DNA of 64,000 nucleotides from Candidatus Poribacteria bacterium. Lineage in GTDB: Bacteria; Poribacteria; WGA-4E; JAJDTR01. The notes below the pieces were generated by a model. It was not told the origin of the DNA, did not search any database, and saw nothing but the letters and a program-made list of their open reading frames with translations. Location of the stretch: positions 3,648,001 to 3,712,000 of the forward strand of contig CBDCTK010000002.1 in NCBI GenBank assembly GCA_965222225.1. The letters are read 5' to 3'. Shown here one piece after another: positions 4,146 to 63,626 of this stretch. The translations under genes and the position numbers were made by a program. The stretch's first letter is position 1, and every line of letters starts with the position of its first letter.

Positions 4146-4317
4146 AGGATTTCCTATCGCCATCGCTATCAAAGATCCCTATCGTACTAGGATTTCTATC
4201 GTGGTCGCTGGGGAATCGCTATCGCCCTCGTTGTTCACTCGGTTAATCTTAGTTGATTCTTATTCAGTCGCTTAATCTTCATAGAATCCTATCGCGTTCG
4301 CTATTCGCTCACTTGAT
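4146..4317 (-). repeat. nest of 5 or more copies of the 36-nt cryptic-hairpin element
   Basis: Minus strand shows complete copies at 4283-4317 and 4211-4247 plus split halves. Confidence 0.85.
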
Positions 4318-4857
4318 CTGTTCACCCTCCATTATCTCGGACCACAATTCCGATAACGCGGAAAATGGCGACGACGACTCTGCGGGTTCACGGCAGTTGC
4401 ATTCACCAATGTTGAGATTGGTGCCGCAACTAGCGCACAAACCTTTACATGACTCCGAGCAGAGCGGCCACTCCGGAATTTCAAGTATGAGCCCCTGGCG
4501 AGCATCTTCCGACAAATCTATCACATCGCCCGAATAGTGTCGCTCCCCAGCATCAATCAACCTCGGATCCATCTTCTCCGGGTCATCGACTTGGCAAAAT
4601 TGCAACTCCACCGCCGCTACAATTTCGGTTTGAAGCGATTCTATGCACCGGCGGCACTCAACCACAAGCGATGTCGAAAACTCCGCTTTTGTGTAGACAC
4701 TTTGGTTATGCCGTGAGAACTGAATATAACTATCAATCGGCGCAACAATCTTGAAATCCTCGCCTTCCAAAGCAAACTCTGAGGGCGACACTTGGAGTTC
4801 GCGGATGTCAAGATCGCCATCGGGAATCTCGTTGACAGGGAACTCTAACCCTTTCAT
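4309..4857 (-). CDS. yceD: DUF177/YceD family protein
   Basis: CRRC...LCSESCKGLCASCGTNLN motif; upstream of rpmF. Confidence 0.9.
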   Translation of the reverse strand: MKGLEFPVNEIPDGDLDIRELQVSPSEFALEGEDFKIVAPIDSYIQFSRHNQSVYTKAEFSTSLVVECRRCIESLQTEIVAAVELQFCQVDDPEKMDPRLIDAGERHYSGDVIDLSEDARQGLILEIPEWPLCSESCKGLCASCGTNLNIGECNCREPAESSSPFSALSELWSEIMEGEQIK

Positions 4858-6077
4858 GGTACGACAATTCCTAGTTCAAATTCGTCGTGCACTGCACGCA
4901 CTGCTTGTTCCGTGTGTTGCTCATCAATCGCGCAGGATATCTTAATCTCTGAAGTGCTAATCATCTGAATATTGACGCCTTCCTTGCCAAGTGCGCTGAA
5001 CATCCGCGCGGCAATGCCAACATGGCTCTGCATCCCGATTCCGATTGCCGATATCTTCGCAATAGTCTTGTCGGTGCTGATACTCCGAAAATCTATGTCC
5101 GCTTTCAACTTTTCTACAATTCTAAGTGTTGGGGCTAAATCTTTTTCGGTGACTGTGAATGAAATATCCGCCGTCTCGTCTTGGCCCGCGTTTTGAATGA
5201 TCATATCAATGTTGGTGTTGGCACCTGCAACTTCTTGGAAAATCCGCGCGGCGATTCCTGGCGTATCCGGCAAACCAAGCAGCGAGATTTTTGCCTGATT
5301 CCTATCTGATGTCACACCACTAATAACAACTTCCTCTATCATGTCACTGTCGTTTATAACCATCGTACCTTCATCTTCATTGAAACTGGATCGAACATGG
5401 AGGGGAACATCGAATTTCTTTGCAATTTCCACCGATCGAGAATGTAGCACTTTCGCCCCGAGTTGCGCCATCTCGAACATCTCATCATACGTAATCCGGT
5501 TCAACTTCCGTGCGTTCGGGACGACACGAGGGTCCGCGGTGTAGACGCCGTCGACGTCCGTGTAGATTTCGCAACGATCTGCGCCCAACGTGGCTGCAAC
5601 TGCGGTAGCCGTGGTGTCCGAGGCGCCACGTCCAAGCGTCGTGATTTCGTTGTCAATACTCACGCCCTGAAACCCCGCCAAGATGACGATTTTTCCCTGA
5701 TCCAGTTCTGAAAGGATTCGCGTGTCGTTGATATGCTGAATTCTCGCCTCGCTGTAGAAACCGCCGGTAATTATGCCGACCTGCGTCCCCGTTAGCGAAA
5801 TGGCTTGGCACCCAAGCTCCGATACCGCCATGGCAAGTAGCGCGATGGAGACCTGTTCGCCCGTGGATAGGAGCATGGCGAGTTCACGGTCAGGGGGATT
5901 GGCGGATATTTCATGAGCCAGAAAAGTCAGTCGATCGGTTGTGTCCCCCATTGCTGAGACTACAACGGCGACTCGATGTCCCTCCTCATGTGTCCGCACA
6001 ATGCGTTTGGCGACGTTTTTGATTTTTGTTGCATCGGCAACGGACGTGCCACCAAATTTCTGAACGATAATCCCCAC
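4854..6077 (-). CDS. lysC: aspartate kinase
   Basis: VQKFGGTSV, TTLGRGASD, DVDGVYTADP; two C-terminal ACT domains. Confidence 0.96.
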   Translation of the reverse strand: MGIIVQKFGGTSVADATKIKNVAKRIVRTHEEGHRVAVVVSAMGDTTDRLTFLAHEISANPPDRELAMLLSTGEQVSIALLAMAVSELGCQAISLTGTQVGIITGGFYSEARIQHINDTRILSELDQGKIVILAGFQGVSIDNEITTLGRGASDTTATAVAATLGADRCEIYTDVDGVYTADPRVVPNARKLNRITYDEMFEMAQLGAKVLHSRSVEIAKKFDVPLHVRSSFNEDEGTMVINDSDMIEEVVISGVTSDRNQAKISLLGLPDTPGIAARIFQEVAGANTNIDMIIQNAGQDETADISFTVTEKDLAPTLRIVEKLKADIDFRSISTDKTIAKISAIGIGMQSHVGIAARMFSALGKEGVNIQMISTSEIKISCAIDEQHTEQAVRAVHDEFELGIVVP

Positions 6078-6146
6078 GCCTAGTATTCTCTTCTCCAGTT
6101 GGATTCCGACGTGAATCCGTTGTTCAATGCTACAACGGCGAATACC

Positions 6147-7472
6147 TCAGAACGCGACCTCTTCCTCAATCCTGATGAGCTGACTCGCCCCTTTAACGAC
6201 ATTGAGTGCGTCAATCTCCTTCATCGCAAACTGCATATTCTTCTCAGATGCCATATGAGTAACAATGACGAGGGACGCCGTCTGATCGGATTCATAGCGT
6301 TCTTTTTGGATAACCGATGCGATGCTGATACGATGTTCTCCCAGAATACTACTGATTTGTGCCAAAACTCCCGGTTTATCTTGCACAACCAAGCGAACGT
6401 AGTAACGTGTCTCAATGTCGTCAATAGGACATAGCGAGACTTCCGGTTTAGCGTCAGTTTGCCAAGCACGTGAAACCCGTGAATCCCTCTCGCCCAAAAT
6501 CGACTTCCCGGCATCAATGATGTCTGCTACGACCGCGCTTGCTGTTGGCATTTCTCCCGCGCCCTGACCGTAGAACAGCGTAGGACCAACAGCGTCGCCG
6601 ATAACGCATACGGCGTTGAAAGCGCCGCCGACGTTTGCCAGCAAACTTTGCATCGGCAGCAGCGTCGGGTGAACGCGAACCTCAACCCTTTTTGCCGAAC
6701 TCAACTTGCCAATGGCGAGGAGTTTAATGACATATCCGAGTTCCCGGGCATATTGAATATCCTGCTGGGCAATTTTCGTAATTCCCTCCACGTGAATATG
6801 TTCCGAGGGAGTATTCATGCCGTAAGCAAGAGCGGTAAGAAGTAGAAGTTTCTGAGCGGCGTCATGTCCCTCTATATCAAGCGTTGGGTCGGCTTCCGCG
6901 TACCCTTTGGCTTGAGCCTCCTTCAGAATGACCTCGAAATCCACGCCACCTTCGTGCATCTGGCTCAGGATATAATTACACGTACCGTTAATAATGCCGT
7001 AGAGCGATTGAATACGATTCGCGGCAAAACTCTCTCGCAATATCTTAATAATTGGGATCCCCCCCGCCGTGCTCGCCTCAAAGTTGAGACTGACGCGGTG
7101 TTCGTCGGCAAGCCGAAACAACTCTCCCCCGTGCTCCGCCAGCAAAGCTTTGTTTGCGGTGACGACGTGTTTGCCGTTTCGAATCGCTTTGCTAATAAGA
7201 TCCCGTGAGTCGGTCACACCCCCAATGAGTTCAACAACAATATCAATTCCCGGGTTGTCAACCACCTCGCTAGGGTCCGTGGTTAAACAGTCGTCAGGTA
7301 AGTCAATTCCATCACGCAGGGCGGGGAGTGTGCGCTTTGCAATTTTCTTCAATCGCAGTTCAACGCCCGCATTTTGTGAAATTAGACCACTTTGACCCAA
7401 TAAAATCTTGGAAACTCCTGTACCGACAGTTCCCCAACCAAGCAGCCCAACATTGACACTGGATTTGTCCAC
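6147..7472 (-). CDS. hom: homoserine dehydrogenase with ACT domain
   Basis: GWGTVG, VVTANKA, GIINGTCNYIL and GYAEADP motifs. Confidence 0.97.
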   Translation of the reverse strand: MDKSSVNVGLLGWGTVGTGVSKILLGQSGLISQNAGVELRLKKIAKRTLPALRDGIDLPDDCLTTDPSEVVDNPGIDIVVELIGGVTDSRDLISKAIRNGKHVVTANKALLAEHGGELFRLADEHRVSLNFEASTAGGIPIIKILRESFAANRIQSLYGIINGTCNYILSQMHEGGVDFEVILKEAQAKGYAEADPTLDIEGHDAAQKLLLLTALAYGMNTPSEHIHVEGITKIAQQDIQYARELGYVIKLLAIGKLSSAKRVEVRVHPTLLPMQSLLANVGGAFNAVCVIGDAVGPTLFYGQGAGEMPTASAVVADIIDAGKSILGERDSRVSRAWQTDAKPEVSLCPIDDIETRYYVRLVVQDKPGVLAQISSILGEHRISIASVIQKERYESDQTASLVIVTHMASEKNMQFAMKEIDALNVVKGASQLIRIEEEVAF

Positions 7473-10308: not shown

Positions 10309-10428
10309 ATTAAACGAGTGGATAGTGAGTGGGATTTTCTATCTGGATTAGCTATCGCCTTGGGATCTCTATCGCACTCGCTATCCGTTCGTTTGATGCA
10401 TCCGCTCAGTTGATCGGTAGAGATCCCC
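10309..10428. repeat. antiparallel nest of 36-nt elements
   Basis: Plus-strand copy split (10309-10330 and 10415-10428) by minus-strand copies, with an intact copy at 10362-10397. Confidence 0.85.
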
Positions 10429-15113: not shown

Positions 15114-15114
15114 C

Positions 15115-16814: not shown

Positions 16815-17780
16815 CTACCGCACAAGTCGTTTGAGCCACCCCCACGTCGTGATTTTCTTGCCTGCAGGAGATACCACAAAAAAAGGGTTAAACCAGTCAG
16901 GGTCAGCATCTCTTAAGGGATTGTGTGTTAGCTTTCGAGGATTCCGACCATCAGCACCTATCACGTAGATTTCAAAGTTGTCGTCTCTATGGGACGAGAA
17001 GGCAATGTGTCTACCATCAGGAGACCATGAGGGAGTCCAGTCATGGTCGCGATGGTTTGTTAGCCTTCGAGGATTCTCACCATTGGCGTCCATTACGTAG
17101 ATTTCCCAGTTCTCGTCTCTATAGGACGCGAAGGCAATGCGTCTACCACCAGCAATGCGTCTTTCAGCAGGCGACCATGAGGGATTACGGTCAGACCTAG
17201 GATTGTTTGTGAGGTTTCGGGGATTCTCACCATCGGCATCCATTACGTAGATTTCATCATTTCCATCTCTGTCAGACACGAAGGCAATGCTTTCACCATC
17301 AGGCGACCATGAGGGATTACGGTCAGACTTAGGATTGTTTGTGAGGTTTCGGGGATTCCCACCATCGGCATCCATTACGTAGATTTCCGAGTTCCCATCT
17401 CTCTCGGAATCGAAGACAATGCTTTCACCGTCAGGCGACCATGAGGGACACCCGTCAGGCAAGGGATTGTCTGTAAGCCGTTGCGGATTTTGACCATCGG
17501 CATCCATCACGTAAATTTCAGGGTTCCCAGCTCTCTGGGATGCAAAGACAATGGTTCCGCCACCAGGCGACCATGAGGGAAACCAGTCAGACGCGGGATT
17601 GTTTGTGAGGTTTCGAGGATTCAGACCATCGGCATCCATCACGTAGATTTCAGGGTTACCATCTCTCTCAGACCTGAAGGCAATCTGTGCTTGTACGTCA
17701 ACGCCTGCCATCAGAGTTGTCAGACTCAAGGCTAGAACGCTAGCTAGAACGAAATATGCGAGATTGTATTTCCGTTGCAT
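16815..17780 (-). CDS. secreted TolB-like PD40-repeat beta-propeller protein
   Basis: Signal peptide; repeated PSWSPDG..IAF.S.RDGN.EIYVMDADG. Confidence 0.92.
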   Translation of the reverse strand: MQRKYNLAYFVLASVLALSLTTLMAGVDVQAQIAFRSERDGNPEIYVMDADGLNPRNLTNNPASDWFPSWSPGGGTIVFASQRAGNPEIYVMDADGQNPQRLTDNPLPDGCPSWSPDGESIVFDSERDGNSEIYVMDADGGNPRNLTNNPKSDRNPSWSPDGESIAFVSDRDGNDEIYVMDADGENPRNLTNNPRSDRNPSWSPAERRIAGGRRIAFASYRDENWEIYVMDANGENPRRLTNHRDHDWTPSWSPDGRHIAFSSHRDDNFEIYVIGADGRNPRKLTHNPLRDADPDWFNPFFVVSPAGKKITTWGWLKRLVR

Positions 17781-21518: not shown

Positions 21519-22514
21519 CTATTCGCTCTTCTGCTTAAGCCAGCCCCATATTGCTCGGAGCTTGCCACCAGGGGAGACAGGATACCGAGCACGATCAAAC
21601 CAGGCAGGATTCTTGTCAGAGCCAGGAACTGCCGCTAGTCTGCGTTGCTTTTTCCCATCGGCATCCATAACGTAGATTTCATAGTTCCCATCCCGCTTGG
21701 AGTGGAAGGCGATACTTTTACCGTCAGGAGACCAGGCAGGAGACTCGTCCTTCGCGGGATCGTCTGTTAGTCTACGTTGATTTTTCCCATCGGCATCCAT
21801 AACGTAGATTTCCTCGTTCCCGTCTCGCTTGGAGTGGAAGGCGATACTCTTACCGTTAGGAGACCAGTCTGGATCCCGGTCCTTCGCGGGATTGTTTGTT
21901 AGCCTGTATTGATTCTTTCCATCGGCATCCATAGCGTAGATTTCACTGTTTCCATCCCGCTCGGAGTAGAAGACGATACTTTTACCGTTAGGAGACCAGT
22001 CTGGAGAACTGTCAGTCGCGGGATTGTTCGTTAGCCTGGTTTGATTGTTCCCATCGGCACCCATAACGTAGATTTCCTTGTTACCGTCCCGATCGGACCA
22101 GAAGGCGATCCTTTGAGCGTAAGGATGCCAGGCTGGATTGCCGTCACTCGGGGCATTGTCGGTTATCTGGCGTTGATTTTTCCCATCGGCATCCATAACG
22201 TAGATTTCAAAGTCCCCACCCCGACTGGAGTAAAAGGCGATACTTTTACCGTCAGGAGACCAGTCTGGATTTTGGTCGAAGGGCTCGTTGACTTCAACTT
22301 CAAAAAAGTCACCTCCCGTTACGTCGCGTTGATTCTCCCCATCGACATCCATAACGTAGATCCTCATACCCCACAAGATATCAAGATTGCCCTTGTCCCG
22401 AGAGGTCTGGAAGGCGATCTTTGCTTCTTCGCGCGCTTGTGCGGGTATAGATAGCGCAACGCCACTCAACACTAGGACGCAACTTAGCGCGATACGCATA
22501 AGTTTCTTTTTCAT
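21519..22514 (-). CDS. secreted TolB-like PD40-repeat protein
   Basis: Signal peptide; six PDWSPDGKSIAF repeats. Confidence 0.92.
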   Translation of the reverse strand: MKKKLMRIALSCVLVLSGVALSIPAQAREEAKIAFQTSRDKGNLDILWGMRIYVMDVDGENQRDVTGGDFFEVEVNEPFDQNPDWSPDGKSIAFYSSRGGDFEIYVMDADGKNQRQITDNAPSDGNPAWHPYAQRIAFWSDRDGNKEIYVMGADGNNQTRLTNNPATDSSPDWSPNGKSIVFYSERDGNSEIYAMDADGKNQYRLTNNPAKDRDPDWSPNGKSIAFHSKRDGNEEIYVMDADGKNQRRLTDDPAKDESPAWSPDGKSIAFHSKRDGNYEIYVMDADGKKQRRLAAVPGSDKNPAWFDRARYPVSPGGKLRAIWGWLKQKSE

Positions 22515-25051: not shown

Positions 25052-25787
25052 GCCCTGTAAAATCTAAGCGTCAACATTGCAGGACTTCTGCACTAAAGAG
25101 GTCGATTCTACGACCTGCACAATGGTAACTATTCACCGCAGACACATTCTCACATAAATTATGCCGTACTCTTAGCCCAACTGTCAAGAAAATTCCAGCT
25201 TTAGATGGGAGCTGTCCATGTGTGACCGTTCCATAGACCTAATCTGCTAGTCTCACGGGGTTCAGGGGCAACAATCCAGTAAAATCAGGGGTTCAGTTCC
25301 AACTTGACATACCCCTCAAACCCGCAGCCGGGTTGACACGTTCAAACACCGTTTTATGGGAATTTGCCAAAACGGATGTTTTGGGGACGCAAAACAAGCG
25401 TCTTTTGGGCCAAGATCCGCCCCGGGTGTGGATTGATGCGGTTTGAGGGTGGAAGATCGTATGTCAACAAAATTGTGGATTTAACGGTCTCGTCCATGTC
25501 TCTCGTTATACCAGTTCCAGATCCAAATACCTCTAACCCTCCTTGGAGGATCAGTGATGGACGGAACTGCTTTCGTATTACTGCCGGCTGACGGCTCATC
25601 CTTGGCTCAGGAGTTCACCGGAGTAATTCATGTCAATGTAATTTAGGACGCGTCACTAAACCCGCCTTTGTACAAAAGTATAATACTGAGGTGCGTCAGG
25701 CCAAACGCACCTGATTAAGGTATAAGAAACTAAGGCCATCAAATCAAGATGGAACAACGCATCATTTCTTGTAGGACGGGCATTGCG

Positions 25788-25969
25788 ATCAAATGAGCGA
25801 ATAGCGATGCGATAGAGATCCCACCAGCCTATGAAAGCGCCAGCGGCGATCAAGCGAGCGAATAGCGAGTGCGATAGAGTTCCTCAGGTGTATAGCGATA
25901 CCAAGTCACCCTAAACCAAAGCCTCAGCGCGGGATCAAACGAGTGAACAACGAGTGCGATAGAGATCCC
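25788..25969 (+). repeat. three 35-36-nt elements, each inserted in a REP
   Basis: Copies at 25788-25822, 25849-25884 and 25934-25969. Confidence 0.9.
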
Positions 25970-26381
25970 GACAGGCTACTTGATCTCAGAAACACTGGCG
26001 ACTTTCTCCGATGCACTGGGGTGGGTGAGACACCAGGTCCAGTTTGCGGAGACGACTTTTTCAATGGTCAACCAAAAGACCAGATGGTTAAAATCTCCCC
26101 CGCTTTTCTTCAACGCTTGATTGACGCTTTCTGTTTTCGCGCTTGATTGTACAAAGTCGAGCTAAGTACGTATTACCTCCTACGCCTTTGTCTCTTTCTA
26201 TGAATCATGGAGAGTAGGGAGCGCAGATCTGTGTTCCCTACTCTCCATTCACCAATGTTTTTCGGAATTAGTAGCTTGTAGCTTTTAGACTGACGACAAA
26301 CATAAAACTTGGTACCCTGTCGTAAATCTTTTCGTCACACGTAGATGTCCATAGTGACTATTCTTCTCGTAGGAGTTTGCT

Positions 26382-35700: not shown

Positions 35701-35937
35701 CTCTTGGGTAGCATTCATGCCGCTCAAGCTCGGGTTCAGTTAGCGATTCAATTCTATCGACGGGCAATCGAACTCGCACCCAATGAACCGATACCGCACA
35801 CCGACTTGGCAGCGTTATATTTCTCGCAAAAGCGGTATGATGACGCACTGAAAGCCAATGCGTCTGCAATCCGCCTCGTACCCGATGTTCCGGAACTTGA
35901 GGAGCAGCGACGACGGATCCAGGATGCGATGCGATAG
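32749..35937 (+). CDS. fused MFS-like/spermidine synthase protein with C-terminal TPRs
   Basis: SGASGLVYEVIW, LYALNTFGA, VVGFGMG, AVEIS and DGRNY motifs; TPR repeats. Confidence 0.9.
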   Translation: MSKIKLIVWLIFLLSGASGLVYEVIWTRQLTLLFGSTVFATSTVLTAFMAGLALGSYYFGRLADREKRPLRLYALLEVGIGVFALIWPLLLSVLNAIYILAYRGLDAEFYSLSLIRFVLSFLVLLLPSTLMGGTLPILSRFFVNRLEKLGLNVGALYALNTFGAVVGCVAAGFFLIQFLGVQASIYLAAAINFGVAITAFLLDRKSIRTAKPSDDGMSETQPASESAPADTGSAPVFRLVLWAFAVSGFCALSYEVFWTRILVFFLGSTTYAFSTMLAAFLFGIALGSFIFAWVADRLKALVNLFGLVQIGIGLAAVALIPAFGGLYDISSTLQSMFGGGRFWSFVACVIVMSVPTLLMGISFPLVARIYTVNAAKLGRSIGNVYALNTVGSILGAFCAGFILIPLIGIRPGIVLMAMLNVITGCVLILRNEKRSRFFNGAAVGGTVLTVGIAVIILFVANKPLFLKSAIFRTQRPGDTVIDYKEEVDATVTTLKDDEDVYRLYVDTNQAADASRWDSPSHRVIAHLPLLLHPNPKRALVVGFGMGVTSYSITQHGVRVDAVEISKGVIDSARAHFSHVNHDVLDNPLFSHSVNDGRNYILMTERKYDMISTGIIHPLVSAGSSNIYTADFYRLCQRILTDDGIMCQWVPLHRVPEEHYKTIVRTFVKVFPHTTLWYKYTPDFVILIGTPRPLRINYNDFLARAQIPSIREGLAHDDLDGMSLLDSFMMGEKRVLEYVGEGRIHTDNHPLLEFFRTQDLANTTAANVAGMTKHRERVTSYLDNYGRTMGEKAEVRRKSRVYFNATQKLIGGQIEYAKGQYDRAAGLLNQAVAINPDDDTIRYNLRVVADLFNKEYQGELKQLEQLVKQAQQKDPKDAEGYFQLAVIYEGQGKLEEAGEALEQAIDLAPDQVHFFLLLGPIYERQDRFDEALRTYQRLETVDANLPSPILQAMALIQHQKNEHDEALNYAQRAFEADATSWRVHYLLGSIHAAQARVQLAIQFYRRAIELAPNEPIPHTDLAALYFSQKRYDDALKANASAIRLVPDVPELEEQRRRIQDAMR

Positions 35938-36049: not shown

Positions 36050-37303
36050 ATGCAGATTCAATCACCAAAGGGGACGCGAGACATCCTCCCTTCAGACATC
36101 CAAACTTGGCAGTGGGTGGAGAAAGTCGCGCGGTCGATTTTCGAGACCTACGGCTATCAAGAGATTCGCACGCCGATTTTCGAGAGCACCGAACTCTTTG
36201 TGCGCGGCGTAGGCGATACCACCGACATCGTTGAAAAGGAGATGTACACCTTCAACGACAAAGCCAACCGCAGCATCACGCTCCGTCCGGAAGGCACGGC
36301 GCCGGTAGTTCGCGCGATTCTCCAGAATCGGCTGCTGGAGGGAACGAATGTGCTGAAGCTGTACTACAATGGACGAATGTACCGCTACGAAAGACCGCAG
36401 GCTGGACGTTTTCGCGAGCACTGGCAGGTGGGAGTGGAAGTCTTCGGGGCTGCGGACCCCGCCGTAGATGCGGAAGTTATTTCACTAGCCCACCACTTTT
36501 ACTCGACGCTCGGTTTCAAAGATCTGATGTTACGCCTCAACACCATCGGCGATCGCGCTTGCCGCCCAAACTATGTAACGGAACTCAAGACGTTCACAAA
36601 AAGCCGCCTGGACCTCTTCTGCAAAGAGTGCCAAGGTCGCTATGAACGCAATCCGTTACGCCTCTTCGATTGCAAGAAGGGCTGCCGCGAAATCCTGAAT
36701 GAAGGGCCTCGACTGGTGGACTACCTATGTGAACCGTGCCGTGAACATTTCGACTCGGTCAAGAGTTACTTGGAGGTGTCACAGATTGATTATACCGAAA
36801 ATCCGGATCTCGTGAGAGGGATGGATTACTACTCTCGCACCACGTTTGAATTCACCGCGGGCGGTCTCGGTGCACAGAACGCAATCGGAGGCGGCGGACG
36901 CTACGATTACCTTGTCGAAGAACTCGGCAATAAGCCGACACCGGGCATCGGGTTCGGGCTTGGCGTTGACCGCATAATTCTCGCCTTGAAGGCGCAAGAA
37001 GTTGCGATTCCGACGCAGCCACCCGTCGAAGTGTATATCGCCGTGCTCGGGGAAGAGACGATGCCCGCCGCCTTTCAGTTGGCGCAACGCCTTCGGGTGG
37101 GAGACATCAGAACCGAGCTTGAGTACACCGGACGCAGCTTGAAAGCCCAGATGAAGACAGCAAACAAGCTGAATGCGCGGTATGTCGTCATCCTCGGTGA
37201 AGATGAAATTCGGGACAAAACGGCGACAATTCGCGATATGGAGACCGGCGACCAACAATCCATCGCGTTCGATCGATTAGTAGACGAACTTAGGAAACAG
37301 TAA
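36050..37303 (+). CDS. hisS: histidine--tRNA ligase
   Basis: LRPEGTA, YRYERPQAGR, VRGMDYY and GGGRYD motifs. Confidence 0.98.
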   Translation: MQIQSPKGTRDILPSDIQTWQWVEKVARSIFETYGYQEIRTPIFESTELFVRGVGDTTDIVEKEMYTFNDKANRSITLRPEGTAPVVRAILQNRLLEGTNVLKLYYNGRMYRYERPQAGRFREHWQVGVEVFGAADPAVDAEVISLAHHFYSTLGFKDLMLRLNTIGDRACRPNYVTELKTFTKSRLDLFCKECQGRYERNPLRLFDCKKGCREILNEGPRLVDYLCEPCREHFDSVKSYLEVSQIDYTENPDLVRGMDYYSRTTFEFTAGGLGAQNAIGGGGRYDYLVEELGNKPTPGIGFGLGVDRIILALKAQEVAIPTQPPVEVYIAVLGEETMPAAFQLAQRLRVGDIRTELEYTGRSLKAQMKTANKLNARYVVILGEDEIRDKTATIRDMETGDQQSIAFDRLVDELRKQ

Positions 37304-37318: not shown

Positions 37319-37339
37319 GTAGGGTGGGCACTGCCCACC
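37319..37339 (+). repeat. GTAG-type REP (GTAGGGTGGGCACTGCCCACC family)
   Basis: Copies or variants also at 37720, 39937, 39992, 46767, 47359, 55064, 25771 and ~21378 (minus strand). Confidence 0.9.
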
Positions 37340-37372
37340 AGCCTTTTTTCCATGCAATATCCCCTCTAGGCG

Positions 37373-37441
37373 ATCAAGCGAACGAATAGATCAACCGAGT
37401 GAATAGCGAGGACGATAGAGATCCCAGTGCGATAGAGATCC
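37373..37441 (+). repeat. 36-nt element inserted into another copy
   Basis: Outer 37373-37389 plus 37426-37441; inner 37390-37425. Confidence 0.9.
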
Positions 37442-37915
37442 ATGAAGGTTTATAGAACCGCAGAAACCCAACGCATCTAAGCCCCAGCGCGGGCGATAGA
37501 AGTCCCACAGGTGACAACTTGCGTTAATCTAGGAAATCCTTGTAGGGAATAAAGATCGTTATTCCCCTTATGATGTCCCGAATCAACGTGCATCGGAAGG
37601 CAGACATCGTTTATGGCAGCGCAATTCACCCCATGCCTACTGTAGGAGCGAGTTTCACTCGCGACAGAAGGTCGCGCCACCTAGAGGAGGTCTCTGCGGA
37701 ACTCTATCGCGCTCCTATGGTAGGGTGGGCATTGCCCACCATTCCCAAACGCGTTGATCGCGCCGCAAACCAACTCAAACTTCATTGTGATTCCACCGCA
37801 GATCGGTTTGTAGCAGCAATCTTCGACTATAAAATCGCCCATTTCCCTTTTTCAGTGCACCTCATGAATAAAACTCTGACCTACTCATACAACAAGGAGA
37901 AACGAAATACACAAA

Positions 37916-39913: not shown

Positions 39914-40131
39914 CTCATGCGGTGGTGTCCTGCTTTGTAGGGTGCGCATTGCGCACCAGCCTTTGTAAGCCCCAATGACGCGACAGTTGTTGTAGGGTAG
40001 GCATCGCCCACCAGCGTTTGATTTTATAGGGTGGGATTTGCGATTACAAATCGCAGATTTCTTCTCTTACCGCCCATCAGCCTTTGGTTTTGTAGCATAA
40101 ACATTCCCCACTAACAACGCCGTGTCGCCTA

Positions 40132-43509: not shown

Positions 43510-43737
43510 GCTAGACGCAACAATCAGCGCGCTTTTCCCTTCAGAGGGGTGCGCTGCCCCTCCCCTCTATACGACGCGATCTAGTTGTTTCATCGGCTCC
43601 GGCAATTTCATATCCTATATTACGAATATGCCCTGGACCGACACGTATTAAATTCTAACGGTCCAGATCCCTATCCTCATATCAATAACTCCCCCTTACG
43701 CCCAGAAACCCCAAAACACGCCCAAGGAGAACCACCT

Positions 43738-46686
43738 ATGCCACAAAACAACCGCACCCCCGAAATCCAAGACTACCGACACGACGCCGCCACCCGAAGA
43801 AACAACCCTCCCGCCGGCATCGCCTCCCACGGGGGGCTCCGCGAAAAACCAAAGCGAGAATACGCCTACAACCCCCACCTGCCGCCTGTCCTCCGATTCA
43901 ACGAGACCGGAGCAGCCGACCAACTCCCCGAACTCCTCGAAAAGGCGAAGAACGGACTTTCCGACGACGAAATCAAAATCCTCGCCGACGCATTGAAAGA
44001 CCGCGCCCCCTGGCTCGAATGGGCAGGCAAACAGGAGGCGAAATCCTTCGCCGTCGATCCGGTGGCGCTGCATATCCACGAGCGCGTGAGCGCAAAAGCC
44101 ATTATGCGAGCCGCGGGACGCCAAGATGTCCAACGCCACCTCTTCGCCGACCCGCAGCAGGCGTATCACGAGGCGGTGCAGTTCTACCAGCACGACGTGG
44201 ATTGGTCTAACCGCCTCATCTTGGGCGATAGCCTCACCGTGATGAGTTCCCTCGCGCATCGCGAAGACCTCGCCGGCAAAGTGCAGATGATCTACATCGA
44301 CCCGCCCTACGGCATCAAGTTTGCCTCAAACTTTCAGCCCACCGTGTTTCAGCGTGATGTGAAGGACAAGGAGAGCGACCTAACCCGCGAACCGGAACAG
44401 ATTAAAGCCTACCGTGACACCTGGACGCTGGGCGTGCATTCCTACCTCGCCTACTTGCGTGATCGTCTGATTGTCGCCAAGGAATTGCTGACTGATAGCG
44501 GGAGTATCTTTGTTCAGATTAGTGATGAGAATGTCCATCGCGTGCGGTGTTTGATGGATGAAGTGTTTGAGAGCGAGAATTTTGTCAGTATGATTAGCTA
44601 CACAACAACCTCTGGTCTCGGAAATAAGAATCTGGAAACCACTGGTGATTATCTTATTTGGTACTGCAAAGACATTTCCCAAATAAAAACTCGTACGATT
44701 TGGCTGGAAAAAGAATTAAAGCCCGATAAGGCCTATAGGAATCTTGAACTCAAACATGGAGCGCGCCGCTATATGTCAAACTCCGATATCGAAGGGCGAA
44801 GTGCCTTCCTTAGGAAGTGTCGTATATTCAGATACGACAACCTGCAAAGTCAAAGTGGAGGCGAGAGTGGACAGTTCCCTGTCGAATTCGAGGGGCGGAC
44901 ATTTAGGATTGCACGAGGTAGCTGGAAAACGAGCAAAACTGGCATGAGTATTCTTATTCAGAGTGGTAGGATTGACCGTTTTGGAAACACGTTGAGTTAC
45001 ATTCGATATATTGATGATTTCCTATGCAAACGATTGACAAATATGTGGACGGATACGAGCATCTCAGGGTTTGCAAGCAATAAAAAATACGTTGTAGAAA
45101 CTAGTCTAAAAGTCATCCAGCGCTGCATTTTAATGACCACAGACCCCGGCGATCTTGTCCTCGATCCCACCTGCGGAAGCGGTACCACCGCTTACGTCGC
45201 AGAGAGTTGGGGCAGGCGCTGGATAACCATTGATACCAGCCGCGTCGCGATTGCCCTAGCGCGTCAACGCCTTCTGACAGGAACCTTCAACTACTACAAA
45301 CTCAAAGATGATTCGGCAGGCGTTGTGGGCGGCTTCATCCATAGAAGTGCCGCGTATATCACGCTCAAGGGAATGGCTCAGAACATAGCGCTTGACCCCA
45401 TCTTCACAAAGCATGAACCGGTTCTTGAGGAGAAGTTGGAGGCGTTGAACCGTACCTTGGAGGCGGTAACACCTGAGATTCGCACCGCGCTGCACGCCAA
45501 ACTCGTGGAAAAAGGGAAACGCGAAGGGAAGAAAGCCGTCACCGATGCCGACCGGCGGCGCTGGGAACTCTCGGGGAGCGCTTGGAAGGGGTGGGAGGTG
45601 CCGTTTGATACCGATCCCGATTGGCACCCAGAGTTGCAGCAAGCCTTAACCGATTACCGCGAGGCGTGGCGGGCAAAGATGGATGAAGTGAACGAATGCA
45701 TCGCTGCCGCGTCCGACATTGAGGAGCTGGTCGATCAGCCAGAGGTGGACAGAAAGAAACTGAGGGTGAGTGGCCCCTTCACCGTGGAGGCGGTGCAACC
45801 CGCCGAAGAATCGCTCCACGACGATTCACCGATTGGGGGTGAACCTGAAGACATGTCGGACACGTTCGAGTCCGAAGGCAGCGGTAGCGAATCGGCAAAC
45901 GCCGAAGCCTATCTTGACAGCATGATTCGTCTGCTCCGAAATGACGGCGTCCGTTTTCCCGATAACCGAACCATGGAATTCGATCGGCTTGACCCGATTG
46001 AAGCTGACGTTCTCCATGCCGAAGGCGCTTGGAAAGACGACACCGAAGATCGACTTATTGCCGTAGTATTCGGGCCTCAACACGGTCCGGTGACGGCGAT
46101 GCAGGTTGAGGAATGCCTGCCGATTGCATCTCGCCGCGGCTACGACGATCTAGTCTTTGCGGGTTTCGGTTTCGATGGCGCCGCCCAAGCCGCTATCGGC
46201 GACGATCCGAATCCCAGAGTCCGTATCCACATGGCGCACATCAACCCCGACGTGGCAATGGGCGGCTTGCTCAAAGAGACGCCAACCAGTCAGCTCTTCA
46301 CCGTGTTCGGCGAGCCTCGTACAAAAGTTGAAATGTCGGAAGACGACGAGTACATCGTCACGATGGAGGGCGTCGATGTCTACAATCCCGTCGACAACAT
46401 GGTGACCTCCGAAGGCAGCGACAGGGTGGCGGCGTGGTTCATTGATTCCGACTACGACGGCAGGACCTTCTGCATCACCCAAGCCTTTTTTCCCGACAAG
46501 AAAGCCTGGAGCAGAATTGCCCGCGCCCTGAAGGGCGTCATCGATCCGGAGCGTTTTGAAAACTTCAGCGGTACCACTTCCTTGCCGTTTCCTGCGGGTG
46601 AACATCGACGCGTCGCCGTCAAGGTCATCGACCCGCGCGGAAATGAGGTCATGCGAGTACACAACCTCGGCGAGCAGGGATACTGA
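43738..46686 (+). CDS. type III R-M DNA methyltransferase (Mod)
   Basis: IYIDPPY and VLDPTCGSGTT in beta-class order; RBS AAGGAG before MPQNN. Confidence 0.92.
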   Translation: MPQNNRTPEIQDYRHDAATRRNNPPAGIASHGGLREKPKREYAYNPHLPPVLRFNETGAADQLPELLEKAKNGLSDDEIKILADALKDRAPWLEWAGKQEAKSFAVDPVALHIHERVSAKAIMRAAGRQDVQRHLFADPQQAYHEAVQFYQHDVDWSNRLILGDSLTVMSSLAHREDLAGKVQMIYIDPPYGIKFASNFQPTVFQRDVKDKESDLTREPEQIKAYRDTWTLGVHSYLAYLRDRLIVAKELLTDSGSIFVQISDENVHRVRCLMDEVFESENFVSMISYTTTSGLGNKNLETTGDYLIWYCKDISQIKTRTIWLEKELKPDKAYRNLELKHGARRYMSNSDIEGRSAFLRKCRIFRYDNLQSQSGGESGQFPVEFEGRTFRIARGSWKTSKTGMSILIQSGRIDRFGNTLSYIRYIDDFLCKRLTNMWTDTSISGFASNKKYVVETSLKVIQRCILMTTDPGDLVLDPTCGSGTTAYVAESWGRRWITIDTSRVAIALARQRLLTGTFNYYKLKDDSAGVVGGFIHRSAAYITLKGMAQNIALDPIFTKHEPVLEEKLEALNRTLEAVTPEIRTALHAKLVEKGKREGKKAVTDADRRRWELSGSAWKGWEVPFDTDPDWHPELQQALTDYREAWRAKMDEVNECIAAASDIEELVDQPEVDRKKLRVSGPFTVEAVQPAEESLHDDSPIGGEPEDMSDTFESEGSGSESANAEAYLDSMIRLLRNDGVRFPDNRTMEFDRLDPIEADVLHAEGAWKDDTEDRLIAVVFGPQHGPVTAMQVEECLPIASRRGYDDLVFAGFGFDGAAQAAIGDDPNPRVRIHMAHINPDVAMGGLLKETPTSQLFTVFGEPRTKVEMSEDDEYIVTMEGVDVYNPVDNMVTSEGSDRVAAWFIDSDYDGRTFCITQAFFPDKKAWSRIARALKGVIDPERFENFSGTTSLPFPAGEHRRVAVKVIDPRGNEVMRVHNLGEQGY

Positions 46687-47375
46687 GATCTCGTCTCGTA
46701 ACTATCATTCACACTTGCGCCGTAAGCCGGATTGTGATATACTTAACGTGTGTAATGTGTCTAATTGTAGGGTGGGCACTGCCCACCATCTCCGACTACT
46801 AACCGTACGTATCCCATGGTTTCCTGATATTGATTAGGACTACGCAAACGTGAAACTCCTAGCCCACCGCTGGGCTCACGACGTGGCGATGCGTAAAGGT
46901 GTAACGATACTGTTGCGAATATTTTCCGTGAAAGACTTCTGGCGATGGACTGTTACACGAAGTTTACTGGGTTGCCTGTTACCCCAAAAAAATCCAATGT
47001 TTGTGACATTTTGTGATATTTTGTGACAATTCGTGACATCGCAAGAATCAAACACATTAAGACGGCGTAGATTGGGCTGTACGAACAACCTCCTCGTCCC
47101 AACCATTTTGTATGGATAGATGCCAACCGTGTTTTTCATACCTACTTTCCCGTGCAATTCATACAGAACTTGCTAAGAAGCCGGTTATAGCGTGTATTTT
47201 CGCGCCTTTTTTCCCGTAAAAGTTTCCCAATTCTGCATATTACGTACGAAGAGTATGAAATGCTGTGATGATCCCGTAGAATGCAGCCACTTGTAGTTTT
47301 TCTCTTTTGCGTTCTAGCGGAGCAGAATGTGGTTCAGGCAAACCTGCAGGTCGTTTTTGTAGGGTGCGCACTGCA

Positions 47376-47411
47376 ATCAAGCGAGTGGATAGCGAGTGCG
47401 ATAGCCATCTT
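47376..47411 (+). repeat. 36-nt element inserted in a REP arm
   Basis: GTAGGGTGCGCACTGCA[ATCAAGCGAGTGGATAGCGAGTGCGATAGCCATCTT]ACCAGCCT. Confidence 0.9.
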
Positions 47412-47480
47412 ACCAGCCTTTGAAAGCGCCAGCGGGGCGATAGATAGCAATCTGCATTAAGATAGCCGAGGAAGCACAGG

Positions 47481-47852
47481 ATGGGTAAAAACCACGACAT
47501 CTTTGACGGCTACACCGTCAACCTATTCCTTGATGAAGATGGCGATTATCTTGCGCATCTCGTCGAACTCCCAAATGTCTCGGCTTTCGGACCAACGCCT
47601 GCCCAAGCACTAGTTGAATTGAAAGCAGCTTGGGAATTGATGAAAGAATGCTACCAAGAGGATGGCGCTCCTGTCCCTAAAGCACCGTCACGGGAAGGAT
47701 ACGAAGGGCCGTTCAACGTTCCCGTTGATGCCCGACTTTATCATGAATTAACAAATGGAGCGGCGCAAGCGGGAATCAGTCTTTACGCGCTTGTGGCAGA
47801 GAAGCTAGCGAAGCCGACATCACGTGGCACAAATAGGACAAAAATAACATAA
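47481..47852 (+). CDS. HicB-family antitoxin
   Basis: DEDGDYLAHLVELPNVSAFGPTPAQAL...VPKAP; RHH-like tail FNVPV. Confidence 0.85.
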   Translation: MGKNHDIFDGYTVNLFLDEDGDYLAHLVELPNVSAFGPTPAQALVELKAAWELMKECYQEDGAPVPKAPSREGYEGPFNVPVDARLYHELTNGAAQAGISLYALVAEKLAKPTSRGTNRTKIT

Positions 47853-55022: not shown

Positions 55023-55393
55023 CCCCTCTTCGGTAGGAGCGATCAACCGAGCGGATAGTTGTTGTAGGGTGGGCACTGCCCACCAGCCTTTGGTTTCGTA
55101 GGGTGCGACAGGAATTCATCAAATCGCCAATTTCCCCTTCTTATCTTCAAGGTGTGTCCCAGCCATCAACAAAGACATGAAAAAGTCTCTATACCGAATG
55201 ACCAATAACGACTTCGCTACCGATTACTCAAACCGACTCCCATTTCCCGTCCGATTTTAGTTACAATTGGCGAAGGAAATGGTATAATTTAGAAAATCGC
55301 ATCAATTCCGATTCATCAAGCGCTTGGACATGTGCGCACCACCGCTAATTCGCCGAATCAGAAGCCTTAGTATTCAACATAGGAGACTAGCAA

Positions 55394-57016
55394 ATGGATC
55401 AAACGAATCACGACGCACCTGCCGAAACAAGTGGCGGTCACAAAATCCTCATTGGTATCATTATCGCCATTATTTTCGGAACGATCGTCGGTGGCTGGCT
55501 GCCGGGCGTCGCCGTAAAGACTTCAATTCTCGGCGAAATCTTCCTCAATTCGCTGAAGATGATTGTCGTCCCGCTCGTCATGCTCTCAATGATCGTTGGC
55601 ATCACCGGCTTGGGCGATATACGGAACCTAGGTCCCATTGGCGGACGTACCGTTCTCTACTATATGGCGACAACAGGGATTTCGGTGTTGATTGGCATTA
55701 TCTTGGTCAATGTCATTCAACCGGGAAAAGGCATTTCGCACGGCGAAGAACGCCCCGAGTTGGCGTATACCCTCAGCGGCGATGGGGACCGCACCGTCAA
55801 TCTGACAAACGGCACATGGAAAAGGACACGATACAGCGAAAAATACATGCTGATGTTGTCGGATCAGCAGGTTGAGGGCGAGATAGAATCCCTCTCCGAG
55901 GAGTCGGCGACGGTGAAATCCTGGAAAAACAAGGTGGAAGGCGTATTCCACATCGCAACCGATAGCGGCGAGCATCTGCCATTCCGCCGCGTGAACGGAG
56001 AGGTAGTTTCTGCCGAGCCTGAACTTTTACAGAATGGAACAGGGCTTGAGGTCAAGTTGCCCGTCGCCCAGAAACTTCGTGGTAAAGAGAAACGGGATAT
56101 GGGTGGCACGTTGAAGGAGGTGCTGCTCGGAGACAAATCGACCGGAAAAGAGGGTATGATTCCACGCAATGTCTTCAATGCGATGGTGCGAATGGATATC
56201 TTGCCCCTGATATTCTTCTCGCTACTGATTGGCGCCACGCTTTCAGTTCTCGGCGAGCGGGGGCGACCCGCCATATCAGTTATTTCCGGCTTGAATGATG
56301 CCGTAATGCAACTGGTGCACTGGATTATGGTTCTCGCCCCGGTCGGCATCTTTGGACTGATAGCCGGACGTATTGGTGACGCTGGGGGATTCAAAAGCTT
56401 TTTGCCGGAACTGATGGCAGTCGGGAAATACAGTTTCACCGTCGTGTTTGGACTTGGGGTGCATGGCATTATTGTATTGCCGCTTATCCTCCTGCTGATT
56501 GCCCGCAGAAATCCGGTGAAGTACCTAAAGGGCATGAGTACTGCGCTACTGAACGCTTTTTCGACAGCTTCCTCCTCCGCCACGCTTCCGCTATCAATGA
56601 GGGCGGTCCAAAAGGAAAATGGGGTTTCTAACCGCACGGCGAGTTTTGTCCTGCCGCTCGGCGCTACAATCAACATGGACGGCACCGCCCTCTACGAAGC
56701 CATTGCGGCGATGTTCATCGCGCAGGTCTACGGGATCGAGCTCGGCCCAGCCCAACAGACTGTTATCTTTCTGACAGCCACCCTAGCAGCGATTGGCGCG
56801 GCGGGAATTCCGGAAGCCGGGCTTGTCACTATGGTCATCGTCCTTAGAGCCGTTGACCTGCCGATTGAAGGTATCGGGCTTATTCTGACGATTGATTGGT
56901 TGCTTGACCGATTCCGAACAACTGTTAATGTCTGGGGCGACAGCGTCGGAGCCGGTGTTATCGAAACGCTCGAAAACCGCAGTACCTCGGAACATGCGGA
57001 TCAAGCGAATGGATAA
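55394..57016 (+). CDS. dicarboxylate/amino acid:cation symporter (DAACS)
   Basis: FSTASSSATLP, GATINMDGTALY and DRFRTTVNV motifs. Confidence 0.95.
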   Translation: MDQTNHDAPAETSGGHKILIGIIIAIIFGTIVGGWLPGVAVKTSILGEIFLNSLKMIVVPLVMLSMIVGITGLGDIRNLGPIGGRTVLYYMATTGISVLIGIILVNVIQPGKGISHGEERPELAYTLSGDGDRTVNLTNGTWKRTRYSEKYMLMLSDQQVEGEIESLSEESATVKSWKNKVEGVFHIATDSGEHLPFRRVNGEVVSAEPELLQNGTGLEVKLPVAQKLRGKEKRDMGGTLKEVLLGDKSTGKEGMIPRNVFNAMVRMDILPLIFFSLLIGATLSVLGERGRPAISVISGLNDAVMQLVHWIMVLAPVGIFGLIAGRIGDAGGFKSFLPELMAVGKYSFTVVFGLGVHGIIVLPLILLLIARRNPVKYLKGMSTALLNAFSTASSSATLPLSMRAVQKENGVSNRTASFVLPLGATINMDGTALYEAIAAMFIAQVYGIELGPAQQTVIFLTATLAAIGAAGIPEAGLVTMVIVLRAVDLPIEGIGLILTIDWLLDRFRTTVNVWGDSVGAGVIETLENRSTSEHADQANG

Positions 57017-57104
57017 TGACCGATCAACTGAGTGGTCAACGAAGGCGATAGTAAAGCTCGATAGAAGTCCCATAGTGGCCGCGATCGAGTTCCTATAGAG
57101 ATCC
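57000..57104 (+). repeat. nest of 3 or more 36-nt elements overlapping the symporter stop
   Basis: Outer ATCAAGCGAATGGATAATGACCG...ATAGAGATCC; inner copy starts at 57023. Confidence 0.85.
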
Positions 57105-60678: not shown

Positions 60679-60736
60679 TGCTATTCCAGAATTGCTGATT
60701 TTTACACTTTAATGTTTCAGACGTGGAGGACATATC

Positions 60737-63026: not shown

Positions 63027-63064
63027 ACTCGTCTCAAACCCGCCAAAGCATCCAGGTACAGACC

Positions 63065-63541
63065 ATGAAGAGAGTGTTGATAAGTGCGTGCCTGTTAGGT
63101 GTGAAGTGCCGTCACAACGGACGCGATAGCAAGAGCGAAGAGGTGATGGGAAGGTTTGGAGGGGATGAACTCGTTCCGGTCTGTCCCGAACAACTCGGCG
63201 GATTGTCAACCCCACGCCCTCCCGCAGAGATCGTCGGTGGCGATGGAGCGGATGTTCTAGATGGATCCGCCTCCGTAATTACCGTTGATGGCGAGGACAA
63301 GACGAGCGAATTTCTAGGCGGCGCATATCAAACGCTTGAAATAGCCAAATCACATAACGCCATGCACGCCGTTCTCAAATCGAAAAGCCCATCCTGCGGC
63401 TGTGGTCAAATCTACGATGGAACCTTTACCCGCAAACTCGGCAATGGTGATGGGGTGACGGCAGCGCTGCTCCGCAGACACGGTATCCACGTCATGAGCG
63501 AAGCGGATATCGAAACTAATGACTCGTCACAAGATTCCTGA
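63065..63541 (+). CDS. DUF523 / 2-thiouracil desulfurase family protein
   Basis: ISACLLG, CPEQLGGL.TPR and KSPSCG motifs. Confidence 0.9.
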   Translation: MKRVLISACLLGVKCRHNGRDSKSEEVMGRFGGDELVPVCPEQLGGLSTPRPPAEIVGGDGADVLDGSASVITVDGEDKTSEFLGGAYQTLEIAKSHNAMHAVLKSKSPSCGCGQIYDGTFTRKLGNGDGVTAALLRRHGIHVMSEADIETNDSSQDS

Positions 63542-63555
63542 GCGCGTAGGTTGGG

Positions 63556-63626
63556 ATTAACAATCTTCGATCAAGCAGCTGAATTAAGGAGCGCGATAGA
63601 ATCCCTAATAGTGCCCATAGAAATTC
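63556..63626 (+). repeat. diverged nest of 36-nt elements within a REP
   Basis: GTAGGTTGGG[...ATCAAGCAGCTGAATTAAGGAGCGCGATAGAATCCC...]...AATCCCAAC. Confidence 0.65.

Follow-up and report, generated by a model that had tools for sequence, protein, structure and literature searches.

What is a sequence of about 37 nt that recurs throughout the intergenic DNA of a Candidatus Poribacteria genome, and by what route did it come to occupy so many sites? We analyzed a 64,000-nt stretch of this metagenome-assembled genome (MAG), which we call the window (G000:C2:3648001-3712000; the genome, G000, spans 5.70 Mb in two contigs and has 49.8% G+C). An initial annotation of the window had described about 25 full or partial copies of a short element at 12 loci and proposed that it is a mobile unit selected for a cryptic hairpin. 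Our own reading, to which we assign a probability of roughly one half, is that the element is a non-autonomous, structure-dependent single-strand DNA module that is inserted after a G into hairpin repeats by a trans-acting protein.

We defined the unit from 973 copies aligned on the hairpin skeleton. It reads G-ATCAA-xx-GA-yy-GRAYA-y'y'-GA-x'x'-GCGATAGAGATCCC (approximately 37 nt), and from 5' to 3' it consists of G-ATCAA, a 17-nt stem-loop, GCGAT, and a looser AGAGATCCC tail. The stem-loop is built of two 2-bp steps of Watson-Crick or G.T pairs around an invariant GA/GA step and is capped by G-R-A-Y-A, and the GCGAT of the unit can close the helix against ATC. Information content rises from 0.5 bits or less to 1.3 to 1.9 bits at G(-1)-A1, with G at position -1 in 88% of copies, and on the 3' side it decays beyond position 36. 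The flanks of the aligned copies are unrelated, indicating that this is a discrete unit. The alignment reproduced the consensus given in the initial annotation. The ends of the unit, GATCAA and GATCCC, are not inverted repeats, which agrees with the earlier remark that the element has no terminal inverted repeats.

A search of the genome with nhmmer returned 1,151 matches at E≤0.01 and 1,518 at E≤1. Intergenic calls were made with our own crude gene caller based on open reading frames (ORFs), which gave 79% coding sequence and 4,155 called genes; by these calls, 1,104 of the 1,151 copies (96%) are intergenic. The copies form 701 clusters genome-wide, and their spacing within clusters is irregular, unlike that of arrays of clustered regularly interspaced short palindromic repeats (CRISPR), which have constant-length unique spacers. 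Loose regular-expression counts of hairpin-only and tail-only modules were contaminated by chance matches, and we used them for recurrent junction types only. One such type is the head-to-head junction, which recurs in the genome with gttga directly before 34 tails.

The evidence that the element is maintained as a structure comes from covariation. Using an anchor that leaves positions 6 to 22 free (ATCAA.{17}GCGATAG), we extracted 812 genomic copies, among which 668 36-mers are distinct. The four pairs of positions with the highest mutual information were 10-18, 7-21, 6-22, and 11-17, exactly those predicted, with no other pair close; no second covarying helix was found in the unit by this analysis. 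G8, A9, G19, and A20 were invariant at 94 to 99%, and the loop was G-R-A-Y-A, as had been noted for the copies in the window. The test against shuffled alignments was run on 150 distinct copies, of which the window supplied 6 and other Poribacteria genomes the remaining 144 (a random draw from 212). Stem cells of this alignment were paired in 95.7% of cases compared to 63.3% in shuffles, and 266 cells were changed on both sides compared to 44 in shuffles. The covariation score of 1.014 (0.356 in shuffles) was reached by 0 of 500 shuffles, and controls in which the partner was slid by one to three columns scored 0.214 or less. The covariation first seen among a handful of variable sites is therefore a genome-wide property of the element. 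Forty of the 48 possible 5'-side stem haplotypes are present.

The genomic copies also show which strand is folded. Among their 3,248 stem cells, G.T combinations (343) far outnumber A.C combinations (41), which indicates that the hairpin is selected on one strand only and upholds the strand specificity claimed for the window. Stem bases are restricted to those compatible with 5'-Y-GA-R-3' on each side, with a Y-R pair closing the loop. This is the context favored by sheared tandem G.A pairs, and judging from the sequence the G.A pairs of the element are probably sheared. The proposed ATC(1-3):GAT(25-27) pairing is almost invariant, hence covariation neither shows nor refutes it; at 4:24, 24 of 30 variants make a Watson-Crick pair. 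We discarded an outer pairing between the GATC at the 5' end and that at the 3' end, given that C.A (272) is about as common as C-G (278) at 3:31. The word "cryptic" proved apt: ViennaRNA with DNA parameters did not return the hairpin on either strand, and z scores for the sense strand ranged from 0.3 to 1.4. Either motifs of this sort are not covered by the nearest-neighbor model or folding requires a partner, and we did not count this result against the covariation.

A hairpin conserved in this way could also act at the level of RNA, as a protein-binding structure selected locus by locus for transcript stability, processing, or antitermination. Pairs of the G.U type are tolerated, and the G-R-A-Y-A loop fits a putative GNRA-like pentaloop, a fold known from phage boxB RNAs. 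Contigs from three metatranscriptome runs span the region 37319-37493, which contains a repeat of the type described below and element copies, and copies between co-directional genes show a slight sense excess (437 sense versus 349 antisense). The RNA contigs are unstranded, however, and their libraries may carry over DNA. Orientation relative to genes is otherwise near random, with 179 copies in divergent and 138 in convergent spacers, and 73 of the 278 multi-copy clusters mix orientations. Moreover, copies are nested, truncated, and polymorphic between species, and no Rfam family matches them. We consider a host-level RNA function unlikely.

The location of the copies suggests what the element inserts into. 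It sits inside four families of repetitive extragenic palindromic (REP) sequences headed by GTAG, inside the CCCCAGNGGGG-CG-ACAGGT repeat, inside CRISPR repeats, and inside resident copies of itself. These make up at least six unrelated contexts, all with the same sharp 5' boundary. In the first REP family, REP1 (GTAGGGTGS-GCA-CTGCSCACC), 131 apices in this genome read "GCA" and 39 are occupied by the element. REP2 (GTAGGCGGGG-CAT-CTTGCCCCGCC) also carries it, as do the GGTAGGTGC... REP, the GTAGGAGCGA... REP, and the GCCCCAGNGGGG-CG-ACAGGT repeat. Insertion is directly after a G, with the consensus WGSG^, and copies face one way with respect to the target almost without exception (79:1 in REP1, 31:0 in REP2, and 72:0 in REP-P). 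REP1 is nearly palindromic, and 103 copies lie on its GTAG strand compared to 7 on the other, despite the fact that both strands offer the same local motif. We rejected two simpler rules. If insertion occurred at apices only, complementary flanks would be the norm, but flanks of 6 bp or more were found in just 53 of 669 copies (11 in a shuffle); the hairpin apex is thus one target and not the rule. A coupling of guide and target like that of IS608 was likewise set aside, with no mutual information found between stem positions and flanking bases.

As side observations on these repeats, at least four GTAG-headed REP families coexist in the window (GTAGGGTGSGCACTGCSCACC, GTAGGCGGGGCATCTTGCCCCGCC, GTAGGGAATAA..TTATTCCC, and GTAGGAGCGA...), at 37319-37339, 37720-37740, 37558-37585, and 37656-37690, and in one congener, G008, REP1 occurs as four tandem units in the spacer that follows the gene at 36050-37303.

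The largest cluster in the genome, with 21 matches, lies outside the window in a CRISPR array (G000:C2:2705821-2707937; L161). This is the one cluster that forms a regular array; it has a 37-nt repeat, GTAGCAACCATTGCCSCGAYGAAAAGSGGACTGAAAG, which differs from the element, and spacers of 36 to 37 nt. Copies of the element, some on the plus and some on the minus strand, interrupt several of these repeats at either foot of the repeat hairpin. The spacers have the length of the element, which prompted us to consider off-target integration by Cas1-Cas2; we set this aside because no duplication of repeat or target was seen.

The apex of REP1 also receives a second, unrelated insert. This type 2 element is 35 nt long and consists of GATY, a perfect 6-bp hairpin (TGCGAT/ATCGCA), and a pyrimidine-rich tail. 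It has only one or two copies in this genome, one of them in the window, and it fills orthologous REP1 sites in two congeners, G005 and G001 (the L112 and L116 loci).

If the element moves, related genomes should differ in which sites are filled. We recovered the spacer downstream of the gene at 36050-37303 from nine congeners; the site is bounded by unique genes. The REP1 that stands right after the stop codon of this gene is empty in G000. In G006 the orthologous REP1 contains one element copy, and in G003 and G007 it contains that copy with a second, 38-nt copy placed between its hairpin and its tail. G002 has a copy with different stems, G005 and G001 have the type 2 element, and G004 and G009 have no REP at this position. 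The spacer has a further variable site (CCCCAGCGGGG-CG-ACAGGTG): G006, G003, and G007 are empty there, G005 has a full copy, and G000 has the tail only.

Mapping the flanks of elements in other genomes onto G000 gave 14 comparisons in which the boundaries were resolved. G000 is empty in nine of the 14 rows (eight of them distinct), with 2 to 5 nt in place of the unit, and filled in the other five, for the most part by copies with a different stem haplotype. Hairpin and tail go in together, as a single piece of 37 to 38 nt. In every case 1 to 4 nt are replaced (CA, CG, CAT, G, or GTT; together with the G, typically a G-Y-R triplet such as the GCA of the REP1 apex), and neither these comparisons nor the REP1 apices show a target duplication at filled sites. 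An origin by cutting and ligation at GATC was rejected, there being no GATC in the empty sites. Under strict orthology, with both flanks at least 100 nt long, 17 of 24 intervals have one to four hairpin modules in the relative and none in G000. Empty and filled orthologous or paralogous sites of the kind that a mobile unit should leave are thus present among these genomes.

Mobility of this kind could in principle pass through RNA, with a transcript of the element being reverse-transcribed and integrated. A strand-specific hairpin with G.U-type pairs would be compatible with such a route, as would the lack of terminal inverted repeats and of target duplication. The sole reverse transcriptase of the genome (the only RVT_1 match) is a 670-amino-acid (aa) AbiA-like protein (G000:C2:4499560-4501572, minus strand; L168:514-2526) with 254.8 bits to the PADLOC AbiA/DRT model; none of the group II intron or retron type turned up. 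Typical retrocopies are 5'-truncated, whereas the element has a sharp 5' end and a fuzzy 3' end. We therefore regard retro-mobility as highly improbable.

Selection on a single strand raises the question of replication polarity. The GC skew of contig C2 changes sign at least six times, which is beyond a simple two-replichore pattern and suggests rearrangements or mis-joins in the MAG; we therefore used local skew (±50 kb) in place of replichore position. In 552 of 809 copies (68%), the strand that carries the hairpin is the one locally richer in C, and the orientation of single-orientation clusters is associated with local skew (odds ratio 0.21, P = 5e-20). Association with the direction of genes is weak, and at ±50 kb none is seen. 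The sense strand of the element is G-rich, so its own composition works against this signal. One explanation would be that the element is a polar chromosome or replication signal, a single-strand hairpin selected by the host for a role at forks such as priming or loading, and the 68% bias, independent as it is of gene direction, is what such a signal would produce. Yet the polarity is modest and common to the unrelated REP1, presence varies among congeners, copies cluster and nest, and most genomes of the phylum do without the element (see below). We consider this explanation very unlikely. The asymmetry fits single-strand DNA processing at forks generally and is no independent evidence for a mechanism specific to the 37-mer. 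Being common to empty REP1, it belongs to the whole system of REPs and elements and may be inherited from the carriers.

The initial annotation had suggested looking for an enzyme gene flanked by copies or co-occurring with the element. The genome contains five PF01797 (Y1_Tnp) loci, one intact, two further open and resembling REP-associated tyrosine transposases (RAYTs), and two broken. The intact protein has 157 aa with DHIH, WQ, and YIKNQ..HH motifs and scores 65.8 bits to the IS200 NCBIfam model; it matches subclass 1.2 of Quentin et al. 2018, whose table gives that subclass no REP. Convergent element copies flank three of the five Y1 loci, compared to 9 of the 4,155 called genes. The other eight convergently flanked genes are ordinary, seven matching Pfam families of enzymes, domains of unknown function, or dockerins and one having no Pfam match. 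Flanking of Y1 loci was thus found in G000, but the phyletic distribution of these genes and the flanks of their orthologues do not track the element: as phyletic matches, both the subclass-1.2 gene and the class-2 RAYT were rejected. Orthologues of the subclass-1.2 gene in ten genomes (L141-L151) are always bracketed by inverted GCCCCAGNGGGG-CG-ACAGGTG repeats (ACATGTG in genus g6), and this repeat may be the cognate repeat of the subclass-1.2 protein. We also observed that these repeats form tandem units of approximately 85 nt, and that one such repeat is present in the window at 37470-37520. No TnpB was found in the genome.

We can now state how the element would spread under the single-strand module reading. 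Propagation of the approximately 37-nt module would depend on a hairpin formed by one strand only, which would serve as the recognition structure for a trans-acting single-stranded-DNA protein, most plausibly acting at the replication fork. The best candidates would be the HUH Y1 transposase-like proteins of the genome, namely the intact subclass-1.2 TnpA-like protein and several RAYT-like ones. Element lineages that lose pairing would stop spreading, and this would account for the pairing of more than 95% of stem cells in at least 40 stem haplotypes. The element's favored landing in other hairpin repeats, as observed, produces mosaic blocks, which are themselves gained and lost whole.

Several observations weigh against this reading. 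By standard thermodynamics the free hairpin has no stability. About half of the REP1-embedded copies (38 of approximately 78) share one haplotype. The junction rule is untidy, in that the replaced nucleotides vary. In the strictly orthologous intervals, the whole repeat block of 190 to 320 nt is often absent, with 0 to 25 nt left in G000. Empty REP1 has the same strand bias as the element (116 of 157 on the C-rich strand), and the bias is opposite to that of IS608, which favors the lagging-template strand. As for the enzyme, element copies occur in the brackets of the subclass-1.2 gene in some genomes only, as an occasional insert, and class-2 RAYT orthologues are bracketed by inverted GTAGGAGCGA REPs and not by the element. 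The subclass-1.2 gene is present in 9/9 genomes of genus g1, 7/7 of g6, and 5/10 of g3, of which g6 and g3 have no element or only traces, and it was not found in two of the four g4 genomes that carry the element. Among the Y1 and RAYT genes profiled across the phylum, no enzyme was found that co-varies with the element.

Much of this could be accommodated if the 37-mer were a passenger without machinery of its own that entered a few REP families once and has since spread with mobilized REP/RAYT units, with composite blocks of approximately 200 nt, and by short-patch conversion or template switching that exchanges loop contents among homologous REP copies. Presence or absence of whole blocks in the 17 of 24 strictly orthologous intervals is what this would predict, as are the dominance of one haplotype in REP1, a strand bias equal to that of empty REP1, cognate REPs of the Y1 genes that are other repeats, and loop nucleotides that are replaced and not duplicated. 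Hitch-hiking, however, gives no reason for 95.7% pairing, an invariant GA/GA step, and an excess of G.T over A.C across 40 haplotypes. It also does not account for insertion with the same sharp 5' boundary into six or more unrelated contexts, among them CRISPR repeats and the interior of the element itself, or for the occupation of one orthologous REP position by different haplotypes and by a different element. We consider passenger spread doubtful as the whole explanation. The single-strand module nonetheless shares the work of amplification: gain and loss of whole blocks mean that part of the copy number comes from composites and not from the 37-mer alone, and the interval comparisons indicate that two layers turn over, the 37-mer by itself and composite blocks that contain it. 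The earlier proposal of a mobile, structure-selected unit therefore stands with respect to insertion polymorphism and covariation, and it needs to be qualified in that the unit also moves inside composite blocks that are gained or lost whole.

We used several data sets to establish how widely the element occurs. Among 176 genomes representing 31 genera of the phylum, a strict pattern is abundant in two genera only: the genus of the window, g1 (10/10 genomes, 339 to 912 matches each), and g4, which belongs to another family (4/4 genomes, 118 to 142 matches each). Seven further genomes of the phylum have 1 to 14 matches, the reversed-pattern control gave 0 in all, and 162 of the 176 genomes have no element or only traces. 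An exact-pattern scan of GTDB species genomes yielded only Candidatus Poribacteria among the matches listed. Viral contigs gave 0 element matches, and PLSDB plasmids gave none. The possibility that the copies are adapter or amplification artefacts, raised in the initial annotation, is excluded by their presence in 14 separately assembled genomes of two genera and by the occurrence of part of the window stretch in 20 public runs from 11 studies. A cyanobacterial origin was also rejected, with no Photo_RC match in the genome and only 120 GCGATCGC (HIP1) sites. In Rfam, the sole match to the 64-kb window at gathering score is a tRNA, and positions 25740-26020, which contain three full copies, gave no match at E≤1. 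A literature search on DNA repeats of Poribacteria returned nothing relevant. The element is apparently undescribed, consistent with the earlier impression that it belongs to no known family.

Within the window, a covariance model (CM) built from 150 copies and run with filters off detected 11 full-length copies, ten at E≤3.2e-6 and one with E=0.005 at 63566-63610; nhmmer detected 17 full or partial matches at E≤1. The tail 14-mer with two or fewer mismatches has 11 matches, compared to 0.55 expected and a maximum of 4 in 100 shuffles. Every locus listed in the initial annotation is covered by model matches or by direct reading, so its count of approximately 25 copies at 12 loci was a fair one. 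Table 1 lists these features.

Table 1. Element copies, partial modules, and associated repeats in the window.
Position	Strand	Feature	Evidence
4146..4209	-	Run of tail modules (GCGATAGnnATCC-like) and partial copy	Direct reading; nhmmer 4188-4209, E 0.79; tail match 4212-4225
4208..4251	-	Full copy; coordinates include 4 nt of flank per side	CM 47.7 bits, E 1.7e-6
4278..4321	-	Full copy; 5' end overlaps 3' end of ORF 4309-4857	CM 47.7 bits; ORF list
10312..10331	+	Partial hairpin module	nhmmer E 0.44; sequence
10358..10401	-	Full copy	CM 51.6 bits
10403..10428	.	Head-to-head junction: 5' end of reverse-complemented copy (..CAGTTGATC) abutting plus-strand tail GGTAGAGATCCC	Tail match; sequence
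25784..25826	+	Full copy with 1-nt deletion	CM 47.7 bits
25845..25888	+	Full copy	CM 58.5 bits
25930..25973	+	Full copy	CM 56.8 bits
35927..35945	+	Tail-like remnant GCGATGCGATAGAAGTCTT at end of ORF 32749-35937	Direct reading; not scored by models
37319..37339	+	Empty REP1 palindrome GTAGGGTGGGCACTGCCCACC; target filled in congeners	Sequence; congener comparison
37370..37389	+	Copy cut off after its loop by nested insertion	nhmmer E 0.069; sequence
37386..37429	+	Full copy nested in copy 37370..37389	CM 51.2 bits
37426..37441	+	Remainder (AGT plus tail) of interrupted copy 37370..37389; 3 nt missing	Sequence; nhmmer
37493..37506	+	Tail-only module in REP-P context CCCCAGCGCGG-GCGATAGAAGTCCC-ACAGGTG	Tail match; sequence
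37697..37715	-	Tail-only module	Tail match; nhmmer
40035..40069	+	35-nt type 2 insert (GATT-TGCGAT-TACAA-ATCGCA-GATTTCTTCTCTTA) located, like the main element, at the apex of REP1	
47372..47415	+	Full copy	CM 48.9 bits
51349..51392	+	Full copy of the ATTAA variant, in which T3.G25 would form a wobble	CM 48.7 bits; nhmmer
55039..55059	+	Partial hairpin module	nhmmer E 0.044
56998..57022	+	Tailless hairpin module interrupted by next copy; starts in last codons of ORF 55394-57016	nhmmer; reading; ORF list
57019..57062	+	Full copy nested after hairpin 56998..57022	CM 46.2 bits
57063..57104	+	Run of 11-nt tail sub-units (GATAGAAGTCCC, ATAGAGATCC)	Direct reading
63566..63610	+	Divergent copy with indels	CM 27.6 bits, E 0.005; reading

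The window has two other features of repetitive sequence. A 3.9-kb stretch (43724-47589), which covers most of a 1,033-aa ORF (43585-46686), is repeated at 100% identity at G000:C2:1357108-1360972, owing either to a segmental duplication of recent date or to a duplicate created in assembly. Two arrays of 132-nt tandem repeats (17168-17684 and 21636-22269; 3.9 and 4.8 copies, 81 to 82% matches) lie in minus-strand ORFs, which probably encode repeat-domain proteins.

The closest known systems are the small dispersed repeats (SDRs) of Nostocaceae (SDR4-6, especially SDR5) and mosaics of REPs and bacterial interspersed mosaic elements (BIMEs). Elhai and colleagues reportedly described SDRs in 2008 (Genome Res 18:1484) as 21 to 27 nt long and nested in other repeats, with one family keeping its hairpin by compensatory changes. 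Like SDR5, the element is a very short, presumably mobile dispersed unit placed precisely in an abundant palindrome: its 5' junction is GSG^ATCAA, and SDR5 is found between nucleotides 3 and 4 of HIP1, GCG^ATCGC (PMC4390886). Precise insertion within another repeat and empty sites in related genomes, features by which SDRs are characterized, were both found for the element. The mobilizing enzyme is known for neither, and SDR origins are listed as open (PMC3116915). The element differs from SDRs in its occurrence in Poribacteria, its length of 37 nt, its internal GA/GA step, and its separate tail module, and we set it beside them by description; no SDR-like repeat was found outside Nostocaceae according to PMC5861425.

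With REPs, REP doublets forming hairpins (REPINs) and their RAYTs, and Escherichia coli BIMEs, the element has in common that it is a high-copy, extragenic, hairpin-forming unit in the range of 20 to 40 nt, without terminal inverted repeats or target duplication and with a replication-strand asymmetry; RAYT-like Y1 genes are present in the genome, and the element is interleaved with GTAG-headed REPs as mosaics. In contrast to REPs, its 5' end is G-ATCAA and lacks GT[AG]G, the GTAG heads being those of the carrier REPs, its stem has only 2+2 canonical pairs around non-canonical ones, and it is not the inverted flank of Y1/RAYT genes in orthologues but inserts into REPs. Recognition of a structure on one strand, absence of target duplication, and a link to replication would also be shared with the IS200/IS605 family, from which the element differs in having a single hairpin and no separate left-end and right-end hairpins, a length of 37 nt, and no TnpB in the genome. 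Integron attC sites are likewise strand-specific folded single-stranded DNA in which structure is conserved over stem sequence. Unlike them, the element is not associated with cassettes and is dispersed in intergenic repeats. Miniature inverted-repeat transposable elements are, like the element, short, non-coding, intergenic, and polymorphic between relatives, but the element has no terminal inverted repeats or target-site duplication and is approximately 5 to 10 times shorter.

Considering the two inserts together, it is possible, though we hold this only tentatively, that they belong to a self-standing class of 35- to 37-nt single-strand hairpin-plus-tail transposable modules, with at least two unrelated types (GA/GA and the TGCGAT/ATCGCA type 2). 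A structure-specific enzyme not yet recognized as a transposase, perhaps the subclass-1.2 Y1 HUH protein, would place such modules after G in other DNA hairpins (those of REPs and CRISPR repeats), at their apex or foot. If this were true, the modules would hyper-parasitize REP systems and erode CRISPR arrays, and they would provide the first tractable model for the movement of very small mobile repeats of the Nostoc type.

Tiny repeats without transposon ends have spread in a few bacteria, and their mode of movement has been open since at least 2008. The family described here offers about a thousand diverged copies per genome with covariation that defines the recognized structure; orthologous sites that ten congeneric genomes show as empty, filled, or filled with something else, together with a junction rule; a second element type at the same target; and a small set of candidate HUH proteins. 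In addition, it shows the intergenic DNA of an uncultivated phylum of sponge symbionts to be a layered mosaic in which repeats parasitize repeats, including a disrupted CRISPR array, which is relevant to MAG assembly, annotation, and surveys of defense systems.

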